From the NCBI GenBank assembly GCA_963664875.1, contig OY761611.1, positions 832,001 to 896,000 of the forward strand: a DNA stretch of 64,000 nt, read 5' to 3'. The first letter of the stretch is position 1, and each line of letters begins with the position of its first letter. Positions 8,520 to 29,325 of this stretch are shown here, in pieces. The notes under the pieces are model-generated. The model was not told where the DNA came from. It worked only from the letters and a program-made list of their open reading frames with translations, and did not search any database. Made by a program: the position numbers and the translations under genes. Origin of the DNA: Candidatus Kapaibacterium sp. GTDB lineage: Bacteria; Bacteroidota; Ignavibacteria; Kapaibacteriales; UBA2268.

Positions 8520-9668
8520 CTAATAGTAGTGCATCAATATCTGTTTGCCGTCTGATTTGCATTTTGCTGCAATGAGAGGTATAATTTTTGCTCGAGTCAG
8601 AAGACCTTTCTGCTTGAACTTAATATCTTTTGTAGCAGGATTTTGAGAAGTACCAATCATAAAGCGAATTTTATCAGCAAATTGTAAAGCATCTAATAGC
8701 TTTACAGCTGAATTGTTATCGTCCATCAGCACTCTGTCTTCGTCCCAAATATTATAGACCTGATTCAAAGTAATAGCCCCCTCCGTTACTAAGTCGATAC
8801 CCTCGATTTTACTAATGGGTGGAGTAAGCTCATCATGCAAATCACCTTCGAGTTCAATAGATTTTCCTGTTACCTGAGATACAATTTTTGCAGTCGAAGC
8901 TCCACATACAATCTTGGTACCGTCAAAAGCGAGAAATTTTTCTATAACTTCTCTATCCAAACTTTTATTCGAAGGCGGCCCTGATAAAATATTTACTGTA
9001 GTTCCTTCTCGTCCCCAAGCAATGAGGGCAGTGGTGTCGTCGTCGTAGTTGCCTTTACATAGTTCATGTGCTTTCTGATTGATAGCAGAAGGCAATTCCA
9101 TGTAGTGCATTCTTTCATTGAGTCGTTCATTGATAAATCGATTTAAACCGGCAGACTCCCACCCCATACGAAGACCTCTTCCGAGACCTGCCTGAGTGAT
9201 ACCGTCACTGACAATTACTAAGGCTTCCCGGGGCTTCATAAAACAATTGGACTCCCCAATTATGGCATTTTCAACGGTATAAGTCCTTTGAGGCAGCACA
9301 TTTGAGTATGAGGGTGTCATAAAAATTGGTGCAGGCATATCGTAGGTCAACACAGTTGTTCCGCCGTCTTTCATTATGCGTGCAACAGTAAAAACTGCAT
9401 AAGGCAGCCCGTTTTTTGCAGCATGATTCATAGTTTTAACCAAGCTGGTGAAAGCTCTACGCAGTGAAAACTCAGTCGCCATAAGCTCTTTTAGTCTTGC
9501 TACACACATAGTAGCAGCAATATTGGCTTTGATGCCGTGCCCTAAGCCATCGCTGACTATAATATATGTATTTTCGTTTCGCCTTTCCCAATGCATCACA
9601 TCGCCACATGGTTTGTTTGGATGTTTAGAATTTTGGATAGCTTCTATTTCGATATGTAAGTATCCCAT
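8520..9668 (-). CDS. SpoIIE/PP2C-family Ser/Thr phosphatase of the hydrogenase-associated type
   Basis: PCGD, SDGLGHG, SDGITQAG, DDTT motifs plus C-terminal domain with GIDLVTEG; overlaps the upstream HydS gene. Confidence 0.85.
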   Translation of the reverse strand: MGYLHIEIEAIQNSKHPNKPCGDVMHWERRNENTYIIVSDGLGHGIKANIAATMCVARLKELMATEFSLRRAFTSLVKTMNHAAKNGLPYAVFTVARIMKDGGTTVLTYDMPAPIFMTPSYSNVLPQRTYTVENAIIGESNCFMKPREALVIVSDGITQAGLGRGLRMGWESAGLNRFINERLNERMHYMELPSAINQKAHELCKGNYDDDTTALIAWGREGTTVNILSGPPSNKSLDREVIEKFLAFDGTKIVCGASTAKIVSQVTGKSIELEGDLHDELTPPISKIEGIDLVTEGAITLNQVYNIWDEDRVLMDDNNSAVKLLDALQFADKIRFMIGTSQNPATKDIKFKQKGLLTRAKIIPLIAAKCKSDGKQILMHYY

Positions 9669-11434
9669 AGCCACTTATCATCTTTTTTGTTTTCAACTTT
9701 TTCTTCATCTTCTGTGAGTTTCATGAGGTTTTCTACAAGTTCTTCGCCTCTTGCAGTACTTTCTCCCAGTAACTTAGCAATGTTTTGTGCCATTGTTACC
9801 TGATGGTCAAACAATTCCTGAGCCTGCATGATAGTTTTGCGTTTCATGGAACTCAATTTTACTTTATCAGCCAGACTGTTGGTAATATTTACAAAGATAC
9901 CAACATATTGCTTTTCTTCTTTCAATTTATAGATAATCTGGTGGCAAGTGATACCATATCTTTCGTGTTTTACTGTTAGCTCCATTTTGTCAGTATCCCC
10001 TGAAGCTACTTTTTGGAAAGGCTCCGGATCCATAAGGTATGAAATGTGTTTACCATTTACAGAATGAGTTGCCTGGAAAAACTTTCTGAATGCATTATTG
10101 GTATGGATAATATTCAATCGCAAATCAAGTATCACAATACCGTTTGGTGATGTTTCAATAATCCTATCTGTCCTTTGTTCAGCAATTTTTCTGACATAAG
10201 GAAGACACATATTGAGTTCTGCCATGCCCATTAGCACAGCAATTGCTTTTTCACGGCAAGTGTCATAGCCGCAGGATCCACAATTCAGATGATCTTCTTC
10301 TTTAGTTTTTCCCGTTTTTTCGAGAACTGAATTTATTTCATCTTCACTAAAGTTTGGTACGCAAACAGGTCTTTCTTCTGTGTAAGAAGAACAAAGCTGA
10401 AGGCTATCGTACAAATCTTCCGCATTAGTTACAGAATCATAAGTAATTCTGTTCTTTGCGTAATTTAGAATTCTTCTTTTCCTCTCAAAGATGTTTTCTT
10501 TCAATTCCACACCGGGACCATTGATGCACCCCTGAGAACAAAAAAGAGGCTCTATAACTAAAGTACCTGCAGTTTGCTTTGCCAATGCCAGCGACTCTTC
10601 TATTTCATCAAATCCTGATACAGAAAATATATCTGCAGAGAGTAAATCTGTATCCATTTCACCTGTGCGACTGCTACCTCCCATCAATGGAAAAAGCCTC
10701 GAATCACCAAGAGGCAGCTCGTCAAACTCACTTTCTTCGAATGTTTTTAAATCTATTTTTTCCTCAGCAAACCAATCATTCAACTCATCGAAAGTAAGTA
10801 CAACATCTATAAGGTTATCGTATTCATTTCTTTGAGCTTCAGCCTTTTTGGCAACACATGGACCTACAAAAACTATTTTGACATCATCTCCAAGTTTTGC
10901 TTTTAGGTGTTTAGCATGAGCAGCCATAGGAGAAATCACAGGAACAATATTATCAACCAAATTTGGCTGGTATTTTTCAATATAAGACACAACAGCAGGA
11001 CATGCCGAGCCTATATGAGCTTTGCCTTTGTTTGATTCTATATATTCTTTAGTTTTTTTTGCGACATAATATGCACCCACTGCTGTCTCAGAAATATGGA
11101 AAAATCTCATTGAACGCAATGCAGCAACTAATCTTTTTCTTTGCCATGTTTGATAGAAAGCGGCGTAAGAAGGAGCAATGGAAATAGCTACTTTGTTGTA
11201 ATCTGACAGAAATTTTTTGACTTTATCGGCATCTTTCCGATAAGTTTTAGCTTTCTGAGGGCACTCTCTGATGCAAGTCCCACAGGATATGCACATATCA
11301 TTATCAACATAAGCCTGCCCGTCGTACATTCTTATTGCTTTTACAGGGCAATGCCTTATACATCTGTAACAATCATGGCATTTGGCTTCGTTGGTGAAGA
11401 CAATCTGCCCCTGGACGCGTGGTACAAACTCCAT
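9644..11434 (-). CDS. hydS: Group C (sensory, HydS-type) [FeFe]-hydrogenase with 2x[4Fe-4S], H-domain, FeS and PAS domains
   Basis: CHDCYRCIRHCP and CISCGTCIRECP ferredoxin motifs; H-cluster motifs GSACP, GPCVAKKAE, FCSQGCING; NCGSCGYDTC..C FeS domain; PAS region IIETSPNGIVILD. Confidence 0.85.
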   Translation of the reverse strand: MEFVPRVQGQIVFTNEAKCHDCYRCIRHCPVKAIRMYDGQAYVDNDMCISCGTCIRECPQKAKTYRKDADKVKKFLSDYNKVAISIAPSYAAFYQTWQRKRLVAALRSMRFFHISETAVGAYYVAKKTKEYIESNKGKAHIGSACPAVVSYIEKYQPNLVDNIVPVISPMAAHAKHLKAKLGDDVKIVFVGPCVAKKAEAQRNEYDNLIDVVLTFDELNDWFAEEKIDLKTFEESEFDELPLGDSRLFPLMGGSSRTGEMDTDLLSADIFSVSGFDEIEESLALAKQTAGTLVIEPLFCSQGCINGPGVELKENIFERKRRILNYAKNRITYDSVTNAEDLYDSLQLCSSYTEERPVCVPNFSEDEINSVLEKTGKTKEEDHLNCGSCGYDTCREKAIAVLMGMAELNMCLPYVRKIAEQRTDRIIETSPNGIVILDLRLNIIHTNNAFRKFFQATHSVNGKHISYLMDPEPFQKVASGDTDKMELTVKHERYGITCHQIIYKLKEEKQYVGIFVNITNSLADKVKLSSMKRKTIMQAQELFDHQVTMAQNIAKLLGESTARGEELVENLMKLTEDEEKVENKKDDKWLWDTYISK

Positions 11435-11624: not shown

Positions 11625-12932
11625 TTACAATTTGACAACTGTACGGAAATACATCATTGCACCAAGATCTTCACGATATTTCACTTCTGTTCCTTCAGTA
11701 TAGGCATAAATGTCTTTCATGTATTCGCCTTGCATAAAGAAACCACTTCCCCATTCGAAGAATACACCTTTTGTTACATTGTATTTGATATTCAAGTCGA
11801 TTTCCTGACCATAATCAGATTTATCGCTTACTGTTTTAGCATTAGTTGTAAACATGTGAGCGGCAACTGTAAATACCCAATCAGATTTAGCTCCACCGTA
11901 AGCCAGTGCTAAATAGAAATCATTAACTCCGGCATTTTTATAAGGTGCCATAGATACGAAATAATCCATGTTACCCATAAATTTGTGTTTAGCCGCTAAT
12001 TTGTTGCTGTAAGTATTGTATTTTTCTGTTTCGTCATAAGCAGTACCGGAAAGCATATCTAAACCTACGGACAGCTTAAGAGGATTGAAGTTATAAGATA
12101 CGTCAACTGCAGCTGTATAAGCAGCAATGTCTTTACCACCGTTATCCCCAAACTGGTAAGCACCTTCGATTGTAGTACCTAAATCACCATACTTGCCAAA
12201 ATAACTCATAGCTAAAGTAAATCTTTCTAAGGCATCTTGAGTTTCACCATCAACTACTATGTCTTTTGCATCATTTTCCGCAAAAATTGTAAAATCGAGG
12301 TCTGACTTATCAGTAAGATTGATACGTGAATAGATACCTGTAATGCAAAGTGCGTCAAAATCTGAGGCTTCATCAACCGGCCAATTACTTGGAACAGCTG
12401 CTACTTGCTGACCTGTGATTGCACCGATTTTTCTTTCATTCAATCGGAATAAATCGATCATCCATTTTTCTTGTTTTAAACCAAACCTAACACCGTCAAA
12501 TGATCTTTCAGTATAGCTCCAAAATGAGTTGGAAATAAACCTACCGGTGCCATAATTCATTTGAAAACGACCAACCTGAGCACTTAGAGGTACGTTAAAA
12601 ATATTATCAAATTTGACATACCCTTGTATCATCTCCAAGCTGCTGTTATCGCTTGTCAAGCTTGGCTCCTGTCCCCAAATGCGCGAATCCTGCATTTCCA
12701 TATTAAAGCCCACATACTTATTCAGCCATTTTTCAACACCTACTCGTGTTTTCATGCTTGAATATGTCTGCATATAAGTAGAGTTGTCAAAATCACGACC
12801 ATCTACATAAGGAATAATTTGTGACATACCGGAAATTTTCCATCCATCGTACAAATCAGTTTTGATTTCCTTTTGAGAATAAGCAGGAATAGATAACGCC
12901 ACTAATAAAATCATAGCAAGTAGCTTTTTCAT
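11625..12932 (-). CDS. Alginate-export (AlgE) family outer-membrane porin
   Basis: Signal peptide ending AYS-Q; QDSRIWG, VGRFQMNYG, RSFDG, HKFMGNMDYF, GQEIDL motifs; alternating beta-strand pattern. Confidence 0.75.
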   Translation of the reverse strand: MKKLLAMILLVALSIPAYSQKEIKTDLYDGWKISGMSQIIPYVDGRDFDNSTYMQTYSSMKTRVGVEKWLNKYVGFNMEMQDSRIWGQEPSLTSDNSSLEMIQGYVKFDNIFNVPLSAQVGRFQMNYGTGRFISNSFWSYTERSFDGVRFGLKQEKWMIDLFRLNERKIGAITGQQVAAVPSNWPVDEASDFDALCITGIYSRINLTDKSDLDFTIFAENDAKDIVVDGETQDALERFTLAMSYFGKYGDLGTTIEGAYQFGDNGGKDIAAYTAAVDVSYNFNPLKLSVGLDMLSGTAYDETEKYNTYSNKLAAKHKFMGNMDYFVSMAPYKNAGVNDFYLALAYGGAKSDWVFTVAAHMFTTNAKTVSDKSDYGQEIDLNIKYNVTKGVFFEWGSGFFMQGEYMKDIYAYTEGTEVKYREDLGAMMYFRTVVKL

Positions 12933-14823: not shown

Positions 14824-16206
14824 CTATTTTGTAAGTAGCATTCTCATCGTTGCTGAATATTCTCCTGCTGTAAGCTTGTAAATATAGGTACCTTGTGGTT
14901 CTGAGCTCAAATCCACAGAAGGGGCGTATTCATTTGCATTCATTTCATTCTCAATAACTGTTCTAATAAGTGCACCCTTCAGATCATATACTTTGAGACT
15001 AACAAAAGCTTTCTTATGAAGTCTAAATTTAATCTGCGTTTGAGATGATAAAGGATTAGGATAGTTTTGATACAAACTAAACATTTGGTTTTCGCGTTCG
15101 ATTACACTATTGGGATCACGGGTAAATCCAAGCTTTTTCATTTCATCAGCAGTTAAAGGTTCTGCATAGAACAAATGTGCATTATTTATTTGATTGCCAA
15201 GATAAGACCATTTAGTCATATCAGTAGCAGCAGTCGGGTCACCATCGTAGTCAACAAAATCAAACTTTAATGTTTTGTCCCAATCCAATGGAAGAGGAAT
15301 GACACCTTTCATATTATCTAATTTGTGAGTTTCTTCATTATAGGTCAACATCTGAATAACACCGGTATCGTTGTATGATTTTATAGCAACATTGGTACCA
15401 CCCATATTGTAATGACAATCGCTACAGGATTTTCCGTCTTCAACAATCAAATGACCTGTCAGAGGTGCTATTATTACATTTGTTTTTCCATTATAAACAT
15501 GAGTCATAAATGAGCCTGAAGTGTATTTACCTCTGCGTTTCACTAACATTTGAAAATCTTTAGTTTGTGTGTTTGCTCTTTTTATGTGTCCATCTATAAC
15601 AGATTCCATGTGACAATTTTGACACTGTACAACAGCTTTGACATGGCAAGCCTGGCATTCAAATTTTCCTGATTTTGCATGCATATTGTGTGCAGAATTC
15701 GAAGGTAAGTTTTCCTCTTTATGGCAATTAGTACATTTGGCTTTAATTGCACCCTCCGCCAACATTGAAGCATGCTGAACACCATCATCACCATGCAATT
15801 CTGAAGGTAGGTGACAACTCCAACATTTCATGCCGTGCTCAGAATGTGGATTCTCATGATCAGGATACATATTTGTCTCAGCCGTTTTTCGACTGTGGCA
15901 TGTAAGGCAAGTAGATTCAGAAATTGAATAGTTGTCAGCTGTATTATGACAATCTCTACAAGAAGGTTTATACGTGGCATTATCAACAACCTCACCGTCA
16001 GGATATTGGGTTGCATGGCAATTCTTGCAAGGCAACTTATCAATTTCTATTCCAATAAGAAGCTCCATCCCACCATTTTCTTTTTTATAAGCAGTGGCTT
16101 TGCCCTCTCTTGTGCTGTGAAGACTAGTGCTAAAATTTGCCTGTGACCAAATAATAATCGGCATGGAAATAATAGCAAGCATAATGAGTAAAAATCGCCA
16201 TTTCAT
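14824..16206 (-). CDS. Octaheme c-type cytochrome with C-terminal T9SS type A sorting domain
   Basis: Sec signal ending WS-Q; 8 CxxCH (CKNCH, CRDCH, CLTCH, CWSCH, CTNCH, CQACH, CQNCH, CSDCH); C-terminal LYQNYPNP..VSLKVYDLKG..GTYIYKL..RMLLTK. Confidence 0.9.
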   Translation of the reverse strand: MKWRFLLIMLAIISMPIIIWSQANFSTSLHSTREGKATAYKKENGGMELLIGIEIDKLPCKNCHATQYPDGEVVDNATYKPSCRDCHNTADNYSISESTCLTCHSRKTAETNMYPDHENPHSEHGMKCWSCHLPSELHGDDGVQHASMLAEGAIKAKCTNCHKEENLPSNSAHNMHAKSGKFECQACHVKAVVQCQNCHMESVIDGHIKRANTQTKDFQMLVKRRGKYTSGSFMTHVYNGKTNVIIAPLTGHLIVEDGKSCSDCHYNMGGTNVAIKSYNDTGVIQMLTYNEETHKLDNMKGVIPLPLDWDKTLKFDFVDYDGDPTAATDMTKWSYLGNQINNAHLFYAEPLTADEMKKLGFTRDPNSVIERENQMFSLYQNYPNPLSSQTQIKFRLHKKAFVSLKVYDLKGALIRTVIENEMNANEYAPSVDLSSEPQGTYIYKLTAGEYSATMRMLLTK

Positions 16207-16255
16207 AACAAGCTCCTATTTTGAAAGATATTTCAATACTAAAATACTTGTTAGC

Positions 16256-16315: not shown

Positions 16316-17671
16316 CTATAAATTAACTTTGTCGATTTTTTGCATTTTCCCGTAGAAAATATCTTCTCCTTTTAATGATAATTTCCGTGCTATGTGTGAG
16401 TTTTTTATCCCAAAACGCACTAAATCATGTACAATTGACTTTGGATGAGAAAAAGGACAGACTTTCATGCAAAGTCCGCAATCAGTTCCTATATGACGCC
16501 AGTATAACAAGCATTTTTCTGGGTTCATCTGCCATTTTTCTACTCCTCTGATTATGGATTTATCATTTGACGGAATAGCTCCAGAAGGACAATTATTGGC
16601 GCATTTTTTACATAATTCGCAAAACTCCTGCACACCAAACTTAATTGGTTCACTCTGTAATAATGGCAATTCAGTAGTTACAACTCCAAGTCTAATGCGT
16701 GCCCCATATTGAGGTGAAATAAGATATCCCAATCTTCCAAGTTCACCCAAACCGGCATCGTGAGCAATTGCCGGCAAAATTACTTCATAGTTAGAGCCCG
16801 GTATATGTGCTTTTGCATCATATCCCATATTTTTGATAAATAGTTCTAATGCCATAGATATTTTCTGAGTATCCATATACTTTAGAGCGGTTTCTTCGGT
16901 TATGCAAATATTGGGAGCTTCATCTACTTTGAAATAATCCATTTCTACAGAATAAACCAAAGCATAATTATGGGTTAGATTTATCTCTTCTCCCCAAATT
17001 CCTGGTCCTCTGCCTCTGTGAGAATATACCCATCTATGATTGATTAATGTTGTACCTACTTCTGCTGCCCCAAGATGAATTGCTTTCTCTTTAAGGATTG
17101 ATGTGAACTCTTCTATAGTTTTATCAATTTTCTTACTATTTGTTGTTTGTGTTTGTAAGTAGCAGTTATTGTGCTGTATTTGAAAGAGCGAAGCAATATA
17201 TTTCGATTTAACCTCATCGTAATACTTAGTACCTTCCGACAATAACTCTGGTTTACGGCGAATTTTTTCGTCTATATTTAGGTTTTGCGGACGTAATTTG
17301 TAATATTCAACATGCTTAGAAGTACCATTTGCATACTCTTCTCTTGAAAACATACCGTCACGCTCATCAAATCTCTCATTTGATTCAAGAATTTTTAAGA
17401 AACTAGTGTTGCCTAATGGAATAAAATATAAAATTATAACACACAAAACTGCAACAGCTATATAGAAGACAAGGATTTGACTTAGTAAAAAACTAAAGGG
17501 AACAAAAAGCGCAACAAGAATCGCTATTGTCGTAGCAATTTTGAAAGCTCTTACTTTTTTCTCTTTGTTTGCCTTAAATGCAAAAGTAAACAACACAGTA
17601 CTTAAAGTGCTGAAAAACGCGCAGTTTAAGAGTCCTAAAACAGAAATCAAATCACTCTCCAATATCTTCAT
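16316..17671 (-). CDS. Reductive dehalogenase-like (cobamide/2x[4Fe-4S]) protein with N-terminal transmembrane helices
   Basis: About three hydrophobic helices in the first 85 aa, no RR Tat motif; RFDERD, HLGAAEVG, AGLGELGRLG..GARIRL..TTELPL; CELCKKCANNCP and C-x10-CGLCMKVCP. Confidence 0.82.
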   Translation of the reverse strand: MKILESDLISVLGLLNCAFFSTLSTVLFTFAFKANKEKKVRAFKIATTIAILVALFVPFSFLLSQILVFYIAVAVLCVIILYFIPLGNTSFLKILESNERFDERDGMFSREEYANGTSKHVEYYKLRPQNLNIDEKIRRKPELLSEGTKYYDEVKSKYIASLFQIQHNNCYLQTQTTNSKKIDKTIEEFTSILKEKAIHLGAAEVGTTLINHRWVYSHRGRGPGIWGEEINLTHNYALVYSVEMDYFKVDEAPNICITEETALKYMDTQKISMALELFIKNMGYDAKAHIPGSNYEVILPAIAHDAGLGELGRLGYLISPQYGARIRLGVVTTELPLLQSEPIKFGVQEFCELCKKCANNCPSGAIPSNDKSIIRGVEKWQMNPEKCLLYWRHIGTDCGLCMKVCPFSHPKSIVHDLVRFGIKNSHIARKLSLKGEDIFYGKMQKIDKVNL

Positions 17672-21656: not shown

Positions 21657-23072
21657 ATGAAACTAAAACTTTTTGTGTCTGCATCTTTATTATTAGCAGG
21701 CATCATTGGGCTTTTTACTATTATTCAAAGTAAAGAAGCCACAAAAGAAAAGCACAATCATGCTGAGTACTTTGAAACAGCTTTTGCAACTCCTCAGGAC
21801 GTAACGAGAGCTTGCATTGAGTGCCATGAAGAAGAAGCTACAAATTTTCTTCATACACGCCATTGGAATTGGCTTGGTGATGAGTTTGAAAAAGAAGGTC
21901 ACGGCAAAGTAAGACTTGGGAAAAAAAATATTATCAATAACTTTTGCATCGCTGTTTCCTCAAATGAACCAAGATGCACCAGCTGCCATCCGGGATACGG
22001 TTGGAAAGATAATACTTTTGATTTTACAAATAAAGAAAATATAGACTGTCTTGTTTGCCACGATCAGACGGGCACTTACAAGAAAGTACCAACTGAAGCC
22101 GGCATGCCGGATCCGAAGGTTGATTTATTAGCAGTTGCAAAATCTGTTGGAAAATCTTCTGTAAATACATGCGGAAGCTGTCACTTTAACGGTGGCGGAG
22201 GTGCCTCAGTAAAACATGGAGATTTAGATCCTTCATTGCTCCAAAAAGACAAAAATATTGATGTCCACATGGGCGGTCAAGGTATGAGTTGCTCAGATTG
22301 CCACACTGCTTCTGATCACAAAATAAGTGGTGCAAGCCATGCTTCTATGACAGAAGGTAAAAACCACATTTCCTGCCAAAACTGCCATGAAGGTGCAAAA
22401 ATTCATAAAAATGAAAAAATCAACACCCACATGGAATCTTTAGCTTGTGAAACGTGTCACATCCCTGCTATTGGTAGAAACAATGCTACAAAAACATGGT
22501 GGGACTGGTCAACTGCAGGTACAAGAGAAGATGAAAAAGGACCTGACGGACATGATGTTTATGCTAAGAAAAAAGGCGATTTCAAATGGGAAAGCAACGT
22601 AATCCCTACTTACAAATGGACAAACGGCAAAGTTGACTATTACCTTGCAGGCGATAAAGTTGATGACACAAAAGTGCTCGAATTAAACATTTTAAAAGGC
22701 GATATTTCTGATCCAAACTCAAAAATTGCTCCTTTCAAAGTAATGCGAGGAAAGCAACCTTACGACCCTGTAAATAAATATCTGATTATTCCGAAGTTGT
22801 TTGGCAAAGACGGCTATTGGAAAACTTTTGATTGGGTGAAAGCATCTGAAATAGGTATGAAAAGCGTAGGGCTCGAATTTTCCGGCAAAGTAGATTTTAT
22901 CGAAACTGCCATGTATTGGTCTCAAAACCATGGTGTTACTCCAAAAGAAAAAGCACTCAAATGTACAGATTGTCACGGTACTAAAGCTACAAGAATTGAC
23001 TGGGCATCGCTTGGTTATGCCGCTGATCCTATGAAAAAAGGTGGCAGAAAGAAAAACAATCTTGTAAAATAA
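21657..23072 (+). CDS. otr: Octaheme tetrathionate reductase (OTR) family cytochrome c
   Basis: 8 CxxCH; HWNW, GKKNIINNFC, RCTSCHPGYGW, DCLVCHD, VKHGDLD, TWWDWSTAG, KIAPFK, NHGV..KALKCTDCH. Confidence 0.92.
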   Translation: MKLKLFVSASLLLAGIIGLFTIIQSKEATKEKHNHAEYFETAFATPQDVTRACIECHEEEATNFLHTRHWNWLGDEFEKEGHGKVRLGKKNIINNFCIAVSSNEPRCTSCHPGYGWKDNTFDFTNKENIDCLVCHDQTGTYKKVPTEAGMPDPKVDLLAVAKSVGKSSVNTCGSCHFNGGGGASVKHGDLDPSLLQKDKNIDVHMGGQGMSCSDCHTASDHKISGASHASMTEGKNHISCQNCHEGAKIHKNEKINTHMESLACETCHIPAIGRNNATKTWWDWSTAGTREDEKGPDGHDVYAKKKGDFKWESNVIPTYKWTNGKVDYYLAGDKVDDTKVLELNILKGDISDPNSKIAPFKVMRGKQPYDPVNKYLIIPKLFGKDGYWKTFDWVKASEIGMKSVGLEFSGKVDFIETAMYWSQNHGVTPKEKALKCTDCHGTKATRIDWASLGYAADPMKKGGRKKNNLVK

Positions 23073-25781: not shown

Positions 25782-25898
25782 ATTTTATCCGTTCCTACGT
25801 TAAATTTACCTAAGTTGTGTTCAAATTATTTGTTAATGTACCATTTTTTTTATTATATTATAGCATATTACTACTAAACAATATAAAGGGCATTTTTG

Positions 25899-26294
25899 AT
25901 GAAAGCAAAATACATCATTACGGCAATAATAGCAATAGCTTTTATAACTCTTGCATATTCTGCTTTTGATAGTAGCAAAATAGAATATACTGATTTTAGC
26001 TACGCAAAAAAAACCGGCAACAAAGTGCAGGTAACCGGCTCATGGGACAAATCGCAAAACTACACGTATGATGCAGAATCAAATACATTTACTTTTGTTA
26101 TGAAAGATGAAGCACAAAAAACATCCAAAGTAGTATATAAAGGTGCAAAACCAAACAACTTTGATATTGCCCCTATGGTAGTAATCAAAGGACAATTCGA
26201 AGGAGACACTTTTATTGCATCAGAAATTTTGACAAAATGTCCTTCTAAATATGAAGCAGATTTTGAAGAAATTAAAAAGAACACTAAAGTTTAA
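25899..26294 (+). CDS. ccmE: Heme chaperone CcmE, CxxxY variant
   Basis: N-terminal anchor, VVYKGAKPNNF, FIASEILTKCPSKY. Confidence 0.92.
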   Translation: MKAKYIITAIIAIAFITLAYSAFDSSKIEYTDFSYAKKTGNKVQVTGSWDKSQNYTYDAESNTFTFVMKDEAQKTSKVVYKGAKPNNFDIAPMVVIKGQFEGDTFIASEILTKCPSKYEADFEEIKKNTKV

Positions 26295-26321
26295 ACTCTC
26301 AACTACTAATACTCGAAAGGA

Positions 26322-28694
26322 ATGCCTATGTTTGGCTCAATAATTATAAATGGACTTTTGATACTGTCCATCATTACAACTATTCTATACTATCTTTCCT
26401 TTAAAAAGGAAAACTTGCTGAAAACGGCTAGATCTTTTTACCATGTCATTACTTTAGGCATGATAGTAGCCTCTGCATATTTGATGTATAATGTGATGAC
26501 TCACAACTTCTCATTTACCTATATTTGGAGATATTCCTCTACAGAGCTGCCAAAATTTCTTTTGGCAACAACCTTTTATGCAGGACAAGAAGGCTCCTTT
26601 GCCTTATGGGCATTGATGCTATCTGTAATAGGTAGCTTGCTGATACCTTATGTAAAAAAACATAATTATGAAGCACCAGTGATGACAATATATTCTCTAA
26701 TTCTGGTATTTATCTTCTTAATTATGATAAACAAAAGTCCTTTTGAATATATTTGGGATTCGTTTCCGGATCAGAATATAGAGGCCGGATTTATGCCGGC
26801 TAATGGTAATGGGCTTAATCCTATTTTGCAGAACTACTGGAACGTGATACATCCACCGATATTATTTTTGGGCTTTTCCGCTATGTCTGTTCCTTTTGCA
26901 TTTGCATTTGCAGGCCTCATCAAAAGAGAATACCATAACTGGATAAAAGTATCTATGCCATGGACATTGTTTGCGACAGGTCTGCTCTCTCTCGGCATCA
27001 TGCTTGGAGGTTTCTGGGCTTACGAAACACTTGGTTGGGGTGGATTTTGGGGTTGGGATCCGGTAGAGAACGCTTCTCTGATTCCGCTGCTTACTGCTAT
27101 AGCACTTGTCCATACTATGCTTGTGCAAAAGAAGACCGGAGGTTTAATTCGTACTAATTTTGTTTTAGCGATTATAAGTTTTGTACTGGTAATATATTCT
27201 ACATTTTTAACAAGAAGCGGAATATTGGGTGATTCTTCTGTCCATTCATTCGGTGATCCGGGTAAACTGACTTATACATTATTGTTGGCATTTTTATCAT
27301 TTTTCACTTTAATTGGTATAATTGCTCTATTTGCAAGATTCAAAGACATAAGTAGAGTTGCCGGTAAATTAGAATTTCAGATGAGCTCTCGCGAATTTAT
27401 GCTATCACTCGGCTCTTTAGTTATCCTTGCTATAGCGGGCTTTGTTCTTGTTGGTACCAGCTGGCCTATTATACAGGAAGTTTTGGGACAGGCAAAAACA
27501 GGAGTTCAAATTTCCATCTACGATGCAGGCTCTCTCCCACTTACAGCTGTTGGATTAATTTTGATGGTATTTTCGGTATTTCTGAATTGGAAGATGACAC
27601 CTGCCGAATTATTAGTAAAAAAGATGTGGTTAGGTGTGCTTCTTGCTGCTATATTTACTAATGTTTTTATCTTTTTAGGCTATAACGAGTTTAAACATAT
27701 TGCTTTGGGATTTGCAGCATTTTTTGCTTTATTCTCAAATTTGGAATATTTAATCAAGACCGCAAGAAAGTACCCGAAATTGATTGGGGCTTACCTATCA
27801 CATTTTGGATTTGCTCTTCTTATTCTTGGGGTTATTGCTAGTGGTGGATATTCAGAATCTCAACAAATGACTTTAAAAGTCGGCCAGACTAAAGAGTTCA
27901 ACGGATATACATTCAAGTTTGTCGGTAAAAACCAAATAGAAAAGGAATTTAAAGACAGAGAAAAATTCCAGTATCTGGTCGAAGTAACTCATGACGGCAA
28001 AACAGATGTAGCTAAACCAATAATTTACTACAGTGACTTTAATCAACGCCAGCAACCATTTTTGGAACCGGGAATTTTGGAATCATTTTCTAGTGATATT
28101 TACCTGTCTCCAAACGTAGCAGACTACAAATATGATATTCCTATCATTTCCCTAGGAAAAGGCGACAAAATTGATGTACCTTTGGCTTCCGGTCTTGCTA
28201 TGACTGTAACAGGTTTTGACATGCAGTCTATGATGGGCGGAGATACAAACAACGGCACTCTTCCTTTTGGTGCGATAGTAGAGTTTTCCGATTCTGAAAG
28301 TACTTTTGTTGATACACTCTACTCCAATTTGGATCCACAATCATTTGTAGGCGAACCTAATTGGTTTACTTTAGAAAAGTACAATACAGACATTTCCTTT
28401 GTGCAGTTTATGCCTGATATGCAGGATATGGGCAAGTCAAAAGTTGCCTTTATTTTGAAAGAAGCAGGCAATGAGATGCCGGCACCGGTTGAATACTTTA
28501 GCTTCGAAGCATCTGTCAAACCACTGATTAATTTAGTTTGGGCAGGAACTATAGCCATAGTTGCCGGTTTCTTTATTGCTATCGGAAAATACACTAAATC
28601 GAAAGAAGCAGGCAATAATTTAGAAGATAATTCGGACAAAACAAAAACTGACAGCAATATTTTAGAAGAAAAACCGTATATTGCTAATAAGTAA
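26322..28694 (+). CDS. ccmF: Cytochrome c heme lyase CcmF
   Basis: YAGQEGS, GLNPILQN, IHPP, WAYETLGWGGFWGWDPVENAS, FLTRSG..SVHSF, KPLINLVW. Confidence 0.95.
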   Translation: MPMFGSIIINGLLILSIITTILYYLSFKKENLLKTARSFYHVITLGMIVASAYLMYNVMTHNFSFTYIWRYSSTELPKFLLATTFYAGQEGSFALWALMLSVIGSLLIPYVKKHNYEAPVMTIYSLILVFIFLIMINKSPFEYIWDSFPDQNIEAGFMPANGNGLNPILQNYWNVIHPPILFLGFSAMSVPFAFAFAGLIKREYHNWIKVSMPWTLFATGLLSLGIMLGGFWAYETLGWGGFWGWDPVENASLIPLLTAIALVHTMLVQKKTGGLIRTNFVLAIISFVLVIYSTFLTRSGILGDSSVHSFGDPGKLTYTLLLAFLSFFTLIGIIALFARFKDISRVAGKLEFQMSSREFMLSLGSLVILAIAGFVLVGTSWPIIQEVLGQAKTGVQISIYDAGSLPLTAVGLILMVFSVFLNWKMTPAELLVKKMWLGVLLAAIFTNVFIFLGYNEFKHIALGFAAFFALFSNLEYLIKTARKYPKLIGAYLSHFGFALLILGVIASGGYSESQQMTLKVGQTKEFNGYTFKFVGKNQIEKEFKDREKFQYLVEVTHDGKTDVAKPIIYYSDFNQRQQPFLEPGILESFSSDIYLSPNVADYKYDIPIISLGKGDKIDVPLASGLAMTVTGFDMQSMMGGDTNNGTLPFGAIVEFSDSESTFVDTLYSNLDPQSFVGEPNWFTLEKYNTDISFVQFMPDMQDMGKSKVAFILKEAGNEMPAPVEYFSFEASVKPLINLVWAGTIAIVAGFFIAIGKYTKSKEAGNNLEDNSDKTKTDSNILEEKPYIANK

Positions 28695-28719
28695 TATACT
28701 ACATTTTTTAGGAGATCCT

Positions 28720-29325
28720 ATGTTTTTCAAAAAATTATCAACTTTAGCTTTAGTTCTTAGCGTAGCTTTTTCAACTGCTTGTAGCAGTGATGCAGACAAA
28801 GTTCAAACAAAAGATGTTGCATCAGCAACATTAAGTGCAGAAGCTCCTGCAAAAGAAAAATCTGTTTTTGAAATCAAAACAGTAAACCTAGGAGATCAGG
28901 TTTTACCTGATTTTACATGGGAACAAAACGGCAAAACAATCAAATTCTCTGACTATATAAAAGACAAAGTTGTATTTATAAACTTCTGGGGCACTTGGTG
29001 TCCTCCATGTAGAGCAGAAATACCTTATATCGTACAATTACAGAAAGAATATAAAGATAAAGATTTCGTAGTTGTTGGCTTTGCTTTAGAAAGAAATCCG
29101 GGCACAGAAGGTGTACAAAAATTTGTAGATGCTCAGGGTATTAACTATATAAACTTCATATCTTCGAGAACTGACCAAAATGCAATGCAAATTGTAAGTC
29201 ACTTTGGTCAAATCAATGCAGTACCTACTACAATGATTTTCAACAAAAAAGGTGAAAAGGTCGAAACAATCGTAGGTGGCAGAGATTACAAATCCTTCAA
29301 GGCTTCGATAGACAAAGCGATGTGA
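28720..29325 (+). CDS. TlpA/ResA-like thiol-disulfide oxidoreductase lipoprotein (probable CcmG role)
   Basis: Start ATG 28720 with AGGAG RBS; lipobox STA-C; NFWGTWCPPC, AVPTT; directly follows ccmF. Confidence 0.85.
   Translation: MFFKKLSTLALVLSVAFSTACSSDADKVQTKDVASATLSAEAPAKEKSVFEIKTVNLGDQVLPDFTWEQNGKTIKFSDYIKDKVVFINFWGTWCPPCRAEIPYIVQLQKEYKDKDFVVVGFALERNPGTEGVQKFVDAQGINYINFISSRTDQNAMQIVSHFGQINAVPTTMIFNKKGEKVETIVGGRDYKSFKASIDKAM

Follow-up and report, generated by a model that had tools for sequence, protein, structure and literature searches.

A stretch of 64,000 nucleotides of Candidatus Kapaibacterium sp. (contig OY761611.1, positions 832,001 to 896,000, hereafter the window, which corresponds to C1:832001-896000 of a closed host genome of 3.83 Mb) encodes an octaheme c-type cytochrome which ends in a type A C-terminal sorting domain (CTD) of type IX secretion systems (T9SS). 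The gene is located at 14824-16206 of the window on the (-) strand (460 aa, stop codon 14824-14826), and its product joins a predicted Sec signal and a heme domain distantly related to octaheme tetrathionate reductase (OTR) to a CTD which passes the corresponding family models. The novelty of the case lies in the combination it points to, namely an OTR-derived scaffold and a new export route for a surface multiheme cytochrome. That the exported octaheme works at the cell surface as a terminal reductase or as an electron conduit is, in our judgement, about evenly poised.

The eight CxxCH motifs (CKNCH 60-64, CRDCH 83-87, CLTCH 100-104, CWSCH 128-132, CTNCH 158-162, CQACH 184-188, CQNCH 195-199 and CSDCH 261-265) extend from C60 to H265 (15412-16029 on the (-) strand, from the translation), a total span of 206 residues. 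This agrees with the original prediction, made from the letters of the DNA, which had proposed a Sec-exported octaheme with its motifs within about 210 residues and more than eight additional histidines; in fact, 14 His lie beyond the motifs. Only about 0.03 motifs are expected by arithmetic from the composition of the protein itself, no more than 17 of the genome's 7744 open reading frames (ORFs) of 60 aa or longer hold two or more, and none of the eight varies in any of the 57 aligned homologues, so that chance is no explanation for their presence. Since all 16 Cys are placed inside the CxxCH motifs, the protein has no lipobox Cys. Among the same 57 homologues, five His outside the motifs are invariant (H30, H121, H138, H176 and H252) and three are mostly conserved (H173 in 86%, H344 in 79% and H236 in 56%), and invariant non-heme residues are found near the N-terminus (S28, R33, G35 and Y40) and after heme 7 (E201 and R210).

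The predicted signal peptide (residues 1-21; 16144-16206, (-) strand), read by eye from the translation, follows the n-h-c pattern MKWR / FLLIMLAIISMPIII / WS/Q, which is conserved in the 57 homologues. Cleavage between WS and Q would leave Gln22 as the N-terminal residue, and this Gln, directly after the predicted signal-peptidase site, is conserved in at least 90% of these CTD-family homologues, which fits the 'Q-rule' described for Bacteroidetes (PMC5837995). The mature heme domain (residues 22-375; 15082-16143, (-) strand) follows, with its eight hemes, an OTR-like fold and a beta-rich C-terminal half.

At the other end of the protein, residues 382-456 (14839-15063, (-) strand) form a predicted immunoglobulin (Ig)-like beta-sandwich which passes PF18962 with 39.2 bits (cut-off 27, residues 382-453) and TIGR04183 with 37.8 bits (cut-off 23, residues 382-456; 41.5 bits in the genome-wide scan), so the type A CTD originally proposed was borne out by the family models. 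Moreover, the model of residues 370-460 matches 8gl6_D and 8glk_D (TMt 0.62), which are the CTDs of RemA and NucA caught in the SprA translocon, as well as the RgpB CTD (7pq4), PorU (6za2, Z 9.4), the mirolase CTD (Z 8.7) and PorZ (Z 8.4), although these fold matches indicate compatibility and not proof, as many unrelated Ig domains reach similar scores. Some members of the family are named 'T9SS type A sorting domain-containing protein' in database records. The cytochrome thus resembles RgpB, RemA, NucA and mirolase in combining a Sec signal with an Ig-like CTD which matches both family models and solved CTD folds, and differs from them in being a redox protein, loaded with eight covalent cofactors, and not a hydrolase or an adhesin.

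The CTD is also a stable feature of the family. A word-indexed search returned 917 homologous proteins at E up to 1e-3, and PF18962 was present in 113 of the 120 best; the other seven (620-637 aa, two of them labelled Acidobacteriota) bear a different C-terminal domain. The sources named among the CTD forms were Ignavibacteriales, Bacteroidales, Bacteroidia and KSB1. In an exhaustive search of 50%-identity representatives, 150 clusters were obtained at E up to 1e-30, and their re-scanning with hidden Markov models (HMM) detected the CTD in 31 and a near-full heme module in 111, the latter comprising 18 with the CTD, 82 which stop exactly at the module and 11 with another tail. Several CTD-less forms have lipoprotein-type signals and long low-complexity linkers, and therefore resemble tethered extracytoplasmic proteins. 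Tandem modules with one terminal CTD were also found, both double (P0006, P0008 and P0011, 786-798 aa, 16 CxxCH) and triple (P0121, 1150 aa, 24 CxxCH). The retention of the CTD in 113 of 120 homologues and in the tandem forms argues that the tag is under selection.

Some further C-termini deserve mention in this context. In four Acidobacteriota-labelled forms of 620-637 aa (P0081, P0085, P0100 and P0104) a conserved domain of about 270 aa, which ends in FPVIPGRAD and has no Pfam match, replaces the CTD; it may represent a further means of targeting or anchoring at the surface. Genome G285 encodes, 3 kb from its family member, an unrelated octaheme of 732 aa (L088:2726-4924, (+) strand) whose C-terminal tail is of the NYPNP type, so that tails resembling the CTD may be present in more than a single family of multihemes. 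Pfam matched the C-terminus of this octaheme to FlgD_ig and not to PF18962. In the host genome, a second candidate CTD multiheme (608 aa, 5 hemes, C1:2573211-2575037) gave no PF18962 match at E up to 0.01. An alignment-seeded locus search was discarded as a source of homologues: it returned 75 loci matching at most residues 319-460, around the CTD motif LxQNYPNPFN, which correspond to other CTD proteins; their titles are mostly Ignavibacteria, Melioribacteraceae, Balneolales and KSB1, a hint of lineage only. A metagenome scan yielded five relatives, three of them on contigs shorter than 3 kb.

The machinery which this tag would address is present in the genome as far as the outer membrane is concerned. 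SprA is encoded in a single 2324-aa frame (C1:2282358-2288867; 786+205 bits, cut-off 200), and PorU (864.7 bits, cut-off 420) adjoins PorV (256.8 bits, cut-off 250) at C1:3725439-3729973. Moreover, at least 150 CTD-bearing frames exceed the TIGR04183 cut-off, a lower bound, as 150 of 202 candidates were scored. The presence of the T9SS core, which the original prediction had set as a check, is thus confirmed for SprA, PorU and PorV, whereas PorKLMN were not found, as detailed below. According to published BLAST evidence, Ignavibacteriae may possess a T9SS (PMC5837995).

As regards the heme domain, AlphaFold (AF2) models reached a predicted local distance difference test (pLDDT) of 88.6 for the whole protein, and of 91.7 with a predicted TM-score (pTM) of 0.90 for residues 23-375. 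When the heme domain was compared with 48,161 representative chains (VIA-align), only eight reached Z 2, and the OTR of Shewanella oneidensis (1sp3_A) was the sole solved chain with Z of at least 5 (Z 9.3, root-mean-square deviation 4.3 Å, 230 residues aligned, model 1-343 on chain 31-438), MtrA being the runner-up with Z 3.0. Foldseek also placed 1sp3 at the top when the heme domain was run against the PDB, but weakly, with an E value of 0.049, and no match reached 0.001; a run with the whole model matched Ig-like domains alone and was set aside. At the sequence level, the family profile had 1sp3 as its best match among PDB sequences (E 7.6e-8), ahead of NrfB, MccA, UndA and NrfA, and hhalign gave a probability of 97.4% (E 9e-12) against a profile of 31 OTRs and of 96.8% against the canonical OTR-family octaheme encoded in the window (21657-23072, (+) strand; no CTD; TIGR04315 576 bits, cut-off 375), which served as comparator. 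The genome holds another canonical gene of the OTR family at C1:6323-7903 ((+) strand, 569 bits), whose product ends in a hydrophobic tail. Nevertheless, identity to OTR is 15-16%, and the family model failed on the cytochrome, which gave no row for TIGR04315 at E up to 0.1. On the basis of these profiles and models, the heme domain is a distant OTR relative and not a member of the OTR family. A protein-cluster look-up, useful as a lead only, had 350-aa multihemes of Thermodesulfobacteriota and Chloroflexota as nearest neighbours (0.85).

Both proteins share eight c-type hemes, the same general fold, of which the beta-rich C-terminal half is a part, export by Sec and maturation by Ccm. In the hhalign comparison, six heme motifs pair up in the same order, hemes 1-6 of the cytochrome with hemes 2-7 of OTR, together with three distal His (DVH, HG and the H before heme 6), and heme 1 therefore falls at the position of OTR heme 2, which we take to be the active-site heme. 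However, OTR heme 1 and the C-terminal heme 8 have no counterpart in the cytochrome, which has two extra motifs at 195 and 261; it also lacks the GK...NNFC loop and possesses its own N-terminal motif, SLHxTRxG, invariant among the CTD-family homologues. The loop, which presumably carries the remote Lys ligand of the catalytic heme, is invariant in the 31 OTRs and falls in a gap of the CTD family, within a low-confidence part of the profile alignment. K36 was considered as a candidate counterpart of this Lys, but finds no support in the profile alignment or in conservation among CTD-less homologues: position 36 is Lys in 86% of the CTD forms and varies (K/M/F/L/H/I) across the wider homologues. 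Finally, the cytochrome carries a T9SS CTD, whereas OTR is presumably periplasmic.

A possible link with electron transfer across the outer membrane comes from the relatives. Of the 11 loci whose upstream sequence is long enough, six (L089:3313-5299, L091:5341-7974, L092:9118-11089, L093:6000-7972, L131:1800-3760 and L133:1615-3508) have, directly upstream of the CTD cytochrome, a sigma-54 activator with a PAS domain and a roughly 150-aa protein resembling tetratricopeptide repeat (TPR) proteins; the small protein is cytoplasmic and starts with MSEMLGNQYF or MHEMLGHHHF. No sigma-54 -24/-12 consensus was detected upstream of the cytochrome gene and nine homologues by two strict patterns, sigma-54 promoters still being possible. 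In two of the genomes (G265 and G041) the activator/TPR pair is preceded by a cluster encoding a 4-heme protein, a 425-aa probable outer-membrane barrel, a 14-heme and a 6-heme protein, so that the CTD gene of these relatives adjoins a cluster resembling the porin-cytochrome (Pcc) systems. The 425-aa protein, in a protein-cluster look-up taken as a lead only, was placed among Ignavibacteriota hypotheticals, with outer-membrane barrels as the nearest named clusters (0.92). In the present genome, homologues of the 4-heme (43-45% identity) and 14-heme (25-26% identity) proteins were located in a multiheme cluster at C1:1262365-1266241, and neither the small TPR protein nor the 425-aa barrel had BLASTP matches at 1e-5 among all its ORFs. 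In another relative, G317, the CTD cytochrome gene is followed by hypA, hypB and hypF (L090:3960-7383, (-) strand).

Maturation of the hemes would rely on the Ccm system. The genes ccmE (25896-26294) and ccmF (26322-28694, coding for a long protein of 790 aa) and that of a ResA/TlpA-type thiol-disulfide oxidoreductase, which overlaps the end of ccmF, occupy 25896-29325 on the (+) strand, 9.7 kb from the cytochrome, in keeping with the 10 kb originally reported for ccmEF. The heme-binding motif of CcmE is CPSKY, that is, the CxxxY type with Cys in place of the usual His, which we take as a marker of 'System I*'.

According to the mechanism proposed, the cytochrome, guided by its Sec signal, would receive eight covalent hemes in the periplasm from this CxxxY-type Ccm system, and its Ig-like type A CTD would then let SprA and PorV carry the folded protein over the outer membrane. 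PorU would remove the CTD, the octaheme domain of about 39 kDa being either held at the surface or released. There, the OTR-derived domain with its chain of eight hemes would hand respiratory electrons to acceptors outside the cell, candidates being Fe(III)/Mn(IV) minerals, humics, elemental sulfur or polysulfide, electrodes and partner cells, and the electron donor to the octaheme would probably be a conduit of the porin-cytochrome type. We infer heme loading, export, CTD cleavage and surface location, as well as the direction and the partners of electron flow; likewise, we infer extracellular electron transfer from the tag, from the synteny of the relatives with porin-cytochrome-like clusters and from the literature on Ignavibacteria. 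In a wider formulation, advanced tentatively and as possible rather than probable, bacteria of the FCB (Fibrobacterota, Chlorobiota and Bacteroidota) group would have an export route of their own, hitherto undescribed, for multiheme cytochromes, in which an OTR-derived module (also in 16- and 24-heme versions), folded and heme-loaded, would pass through SprA by virtue of its CTD and act as the surface terminal reductase of a porin-cytochrome pathway, and in Ignavibacteria-like lineages this would be accomplished by a reduced T9SS (SprA, PorV and PorU) lacking the PorLM motor and the PorKN ring.

Several observations weigh against this scheme. The best GldK matches in the genome, of 64 and 48 bits, stay far below the cut-off (350 bits) and correspond to FGE-sulfatase lipoproteins with no gldLMN downstream, and profile searches of the genome gave zero matches for GldL, GldM, GldN and PorP, divergent analogues being possible. 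GldM was found in none of the 48 sampled genomes of families f1-f14 (those labelled as the family, order and class of the window) and in none of the five genomes carrying the CTD octaheme cytochrome; the GldM model is not at fault, since 51 of the 201 genomes of the phylum sample match it. From its genes, the lineage looks like one which pairs an outer-membrane module of SprA, PorV and PorU with a very extensive set of cargo, and has no recognisable motor or ring. In addition, the gene is monocistronic in the present genome and away from any porin-cytochrome cluster, its neighbours being a reductive-dehalogenase-family protein upstream and unknown lipoproteins downstream, and the 404-aa barrel candidate of this genome is not significantly similar to the 425-aa barrel of the relatives (BLASTP, E 0.62). 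The module is patchy, occurring in 10 of the 401 genomes of the phylum sample, the present one included, and in none of six from the same family (eight genomes of the same class carry it); canonical OTR is commoner, being found in 48 of 301 genomes, with two copies in the present one. Finally, in its fold the heme domain follows an enzyme, OTR, and not MtrC/OmcA or OmcS, and there are just five strictly invariant distal His for eight hemes.

These last points bear directly on the function of the exported protein. The original prediction of a surface terminal reductase or wire retains the support of the bona fide CTD and of the outer-membrane T9SS module, but the OTR-derived fold means that it is not the sole reading, and that a secreted enzyme has to be regarded as a live rival. 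Such an OTR-like enzyme would use one reactive heme, on the cell surface or further out, for the reduction of a compound of sulfur, nitrogen or selenium, with tetrathionate, polysulfide or S0, nitrite, hydroxylamine and selenite as candidates, and would not constitute a general electron outlet. It is the main competing explanation, though we consider it unlikely. The structure and profile matches to 1sp3 are in line with it, as is the alignment of heme 1 with the active-site heme position of OTR, and the invariant S28, R33, G35, Y40, E201 and R210 are what would be expected of a pocket; moreover, five invariant distal His for eight hemes leave room for an open catalytic heme. Nevertheless, TIGR04315 gave no row, the loop with the OTR ligand falls in a gap of the CTD family, the sole candidate Lys is at the variable position 36, and the invariant His30 could close heme 1 as a bis-His heme. 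Furthermore, for soluble substrates, there is no obvious gain over a periplasmic enzyme, of which a canonical OTR is encoded 5 kb away.

The weak GldK and the unmatched GldL, GldM, GldN and PorP, together with the lack of GldM in the class relatives (0/48) and in the carriers (0/5), would also be compatible with a CTD which is not used for export, the octaheme staying in the periplasm as an electron carrier or reductase, and the 82 of 111 near-full modules which stop without a CTD, some of them with a plain signal peptide and probably periplasmic, fit this possibility. However, at least 150 CTD proteins coexist in this genome with SprA, PorV and PorU over their cut-offs, which makes a dead signal very unlikely, the CTD is retained in 113 of 120 homologues and at the end of the duplicated forms, and published BLAST evidence points to a possible T9SS in Ignavibacteriae (PMC5837995); periplasmic retention is therefore judged improbable. 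Should the protein reach the surface, electrons might still flow inwards, with Fe(II), reduced sulfur, a cathode or a syntrophic partner as their source. In principle, a multiheme chain can work in either direction, the G317 gene lies beside hypA, hypB and hypF, and the PAS-type sigma-54 activator of six loci suggests condition-dependent use, yet the sequence sets no direction and the published accounts cited here for Ignavibacteria deal with anodes and with the reduction of Fe(III); uptake is given a low probability. Polymerisation of the exported subunits into a cytochrome filament, or nanowire, appears very improbable. Loose analogy is provided by the invariant H30, eight residues into the mature chain, since in filament cytochromes such a His ligates the heme of the neighbouring subunit, and by the existence of double and triple module fusions; but there is no filament-cytochrome fold among the eight chains with Z of at least 2 (representatives only), and cargo with a type A CTD is usually surface-attached in the form of individual molecules.

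The reading as an exported surface octaheme can be placed beside several known systems. OcwA of 'Thermincola potens' is described as structurally similar to NrfA/OTR-type octahemes, and the SmhA clade as rooted with OTRs (PMC7829351). OcwA and the SmhA/OmhA proteins of Carboxydothermus ferrireducens are, as proposed here, surface or secreted multihemes reducing Fe(III) or electrodes and tied by fold or phylogeny to the NrfA/OTR type and not to MtrC, but their hosts are monoderm and they are targeted without a T9SS. In structural terms, OmhA (6qvm) reaches only Z 2.1 against the heme domain, OcwA not being among the listed chains. With MtrC/OmcA/UndA and MtrAB, or OmcB and OmaB/OmbB in the Pcc systems of Geobacter, the cytochrome would share its proposed role of an outer-face multiheme fed by a porin-cytochrome conduit. 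Nevertheless, surface cytochromes of the MtrC/OmcA type and of Geobacter are lipoproteins exported by type II secretion, whereas the present one has a signal of the signal-peptidase-I type and a T9SS CTD. The fold also differs from that of MtrC/UndA: MtrA reaches only Z 3.0, UndA was matched with an E value of 0.0053 over a generic heme stretch, and MtrC/MtrF domain II/IV (PF22113) gave no row for the cytochrome at E up to 0.1. In comparison with the hosts of classical T9SS cargo, the present one has no detectable PorKLMN.

Most of what is understood of extracellular electron transfer comes from Shewanella and Geobacter. Neither cytochrome nor heme is mentioned in a review of T9SS cargo from 2024 (PMC11205867). 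Pcc clusters like those of Geobacter were reported in Ignavibacterium album (PMC4245776), and another study describes Pcc clusters, large multihemes, anode enrichment and Fe(III) reduction in Ignavibacteria, which, like other FCB bacteria, are repeatedly met on anodes and in iron-reducing settings; the word 'secretion' is absent from that study (PMC7399161). Secreted multi-heme proteins have also been predicted in Bacteroidota including Ignavibacteria, 'T9SS' appearing zero times (PMC11495043). The original prediction knew of no biochemically characterised T9SS-exported multiheme, and, consistently, no paper joining T9SS and multiheme cytochromes was found in the literature searched, most subscription journals and supplements being outside its reach. 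The route by which FCB and Ignavibacteria cytochromes reach the surface is not addressed in that literature, and the family of CTD-tagged octahemes offers a concrete, testable answer; TIGR04183 together with several CxxCH motifs could serve as a simple genomic marker for this capacity. If the proposal is true, T9SS cargo would widen from hydrolases and adhesins to cofactor-loaded redox proteins, and export with only SprA, PorV and PorU would mean that type IX secretion either draws on an energy source not yet known or can proceed independently of a motor, a genome without PorKLMN being a natural case for asking what the minimum of a T9SS is. Moreover, OTR ancestry would add to the view, raised for OcwA and SmhA (PMC7829351), that surface reductases arose on more than one occasion from periplasmic octaheme enzymes.

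With respect to the local context, the gene is preceded by a sigma-70-like promoter, TTGACA-17-TATATT (16284-16256, (-) strand), which matches 11 of 12 consensus positions, a consensus match only, and by a ribosome-binding site AGGAG (16213-16217, (-) strand) read from the sequence six nt before the ATG. It is followed, 26 nt past the stop, by an intrinsic-terminator-like hairpin of 13 bp with five GC pairs and then TTTTATT (14798-14769, (-) strand). These three elements, all of them already noted in the original prediction, flank the gene so that it is framed as a single unit, and the features described in that prediction proved correct wherever they were checked. The upstream neighbour (16316-17671, (-) strand) scores 182 bits with TIGR02486 (cut-off 160), has two 4Fe-4S motifs and bears an N-terminal multi-helix membrane region in place of a twin-arginine translocation (TAT) signal. 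On the downstream side, 2 kb from the cytochrome and separated from it by two unknown lipoprotein-like genes, a 435-aa protein (11625-12932, (-) strand) contains an outer-membrane barrel domain of the alginate-export type (PF13372, 82.7 bits). Further on, the region 8520-11434 ((-) strand) encodes a 596-aa protein similar to [FeFe]-hydrogenases. Its N-terminus is of the ferredoxin kind, it has an additional Fe-S domain, and its gene overlaps that of a SpoIIE/PP2C phosphatase; the two look like a sensory hydrogenase and phosphatase pair.

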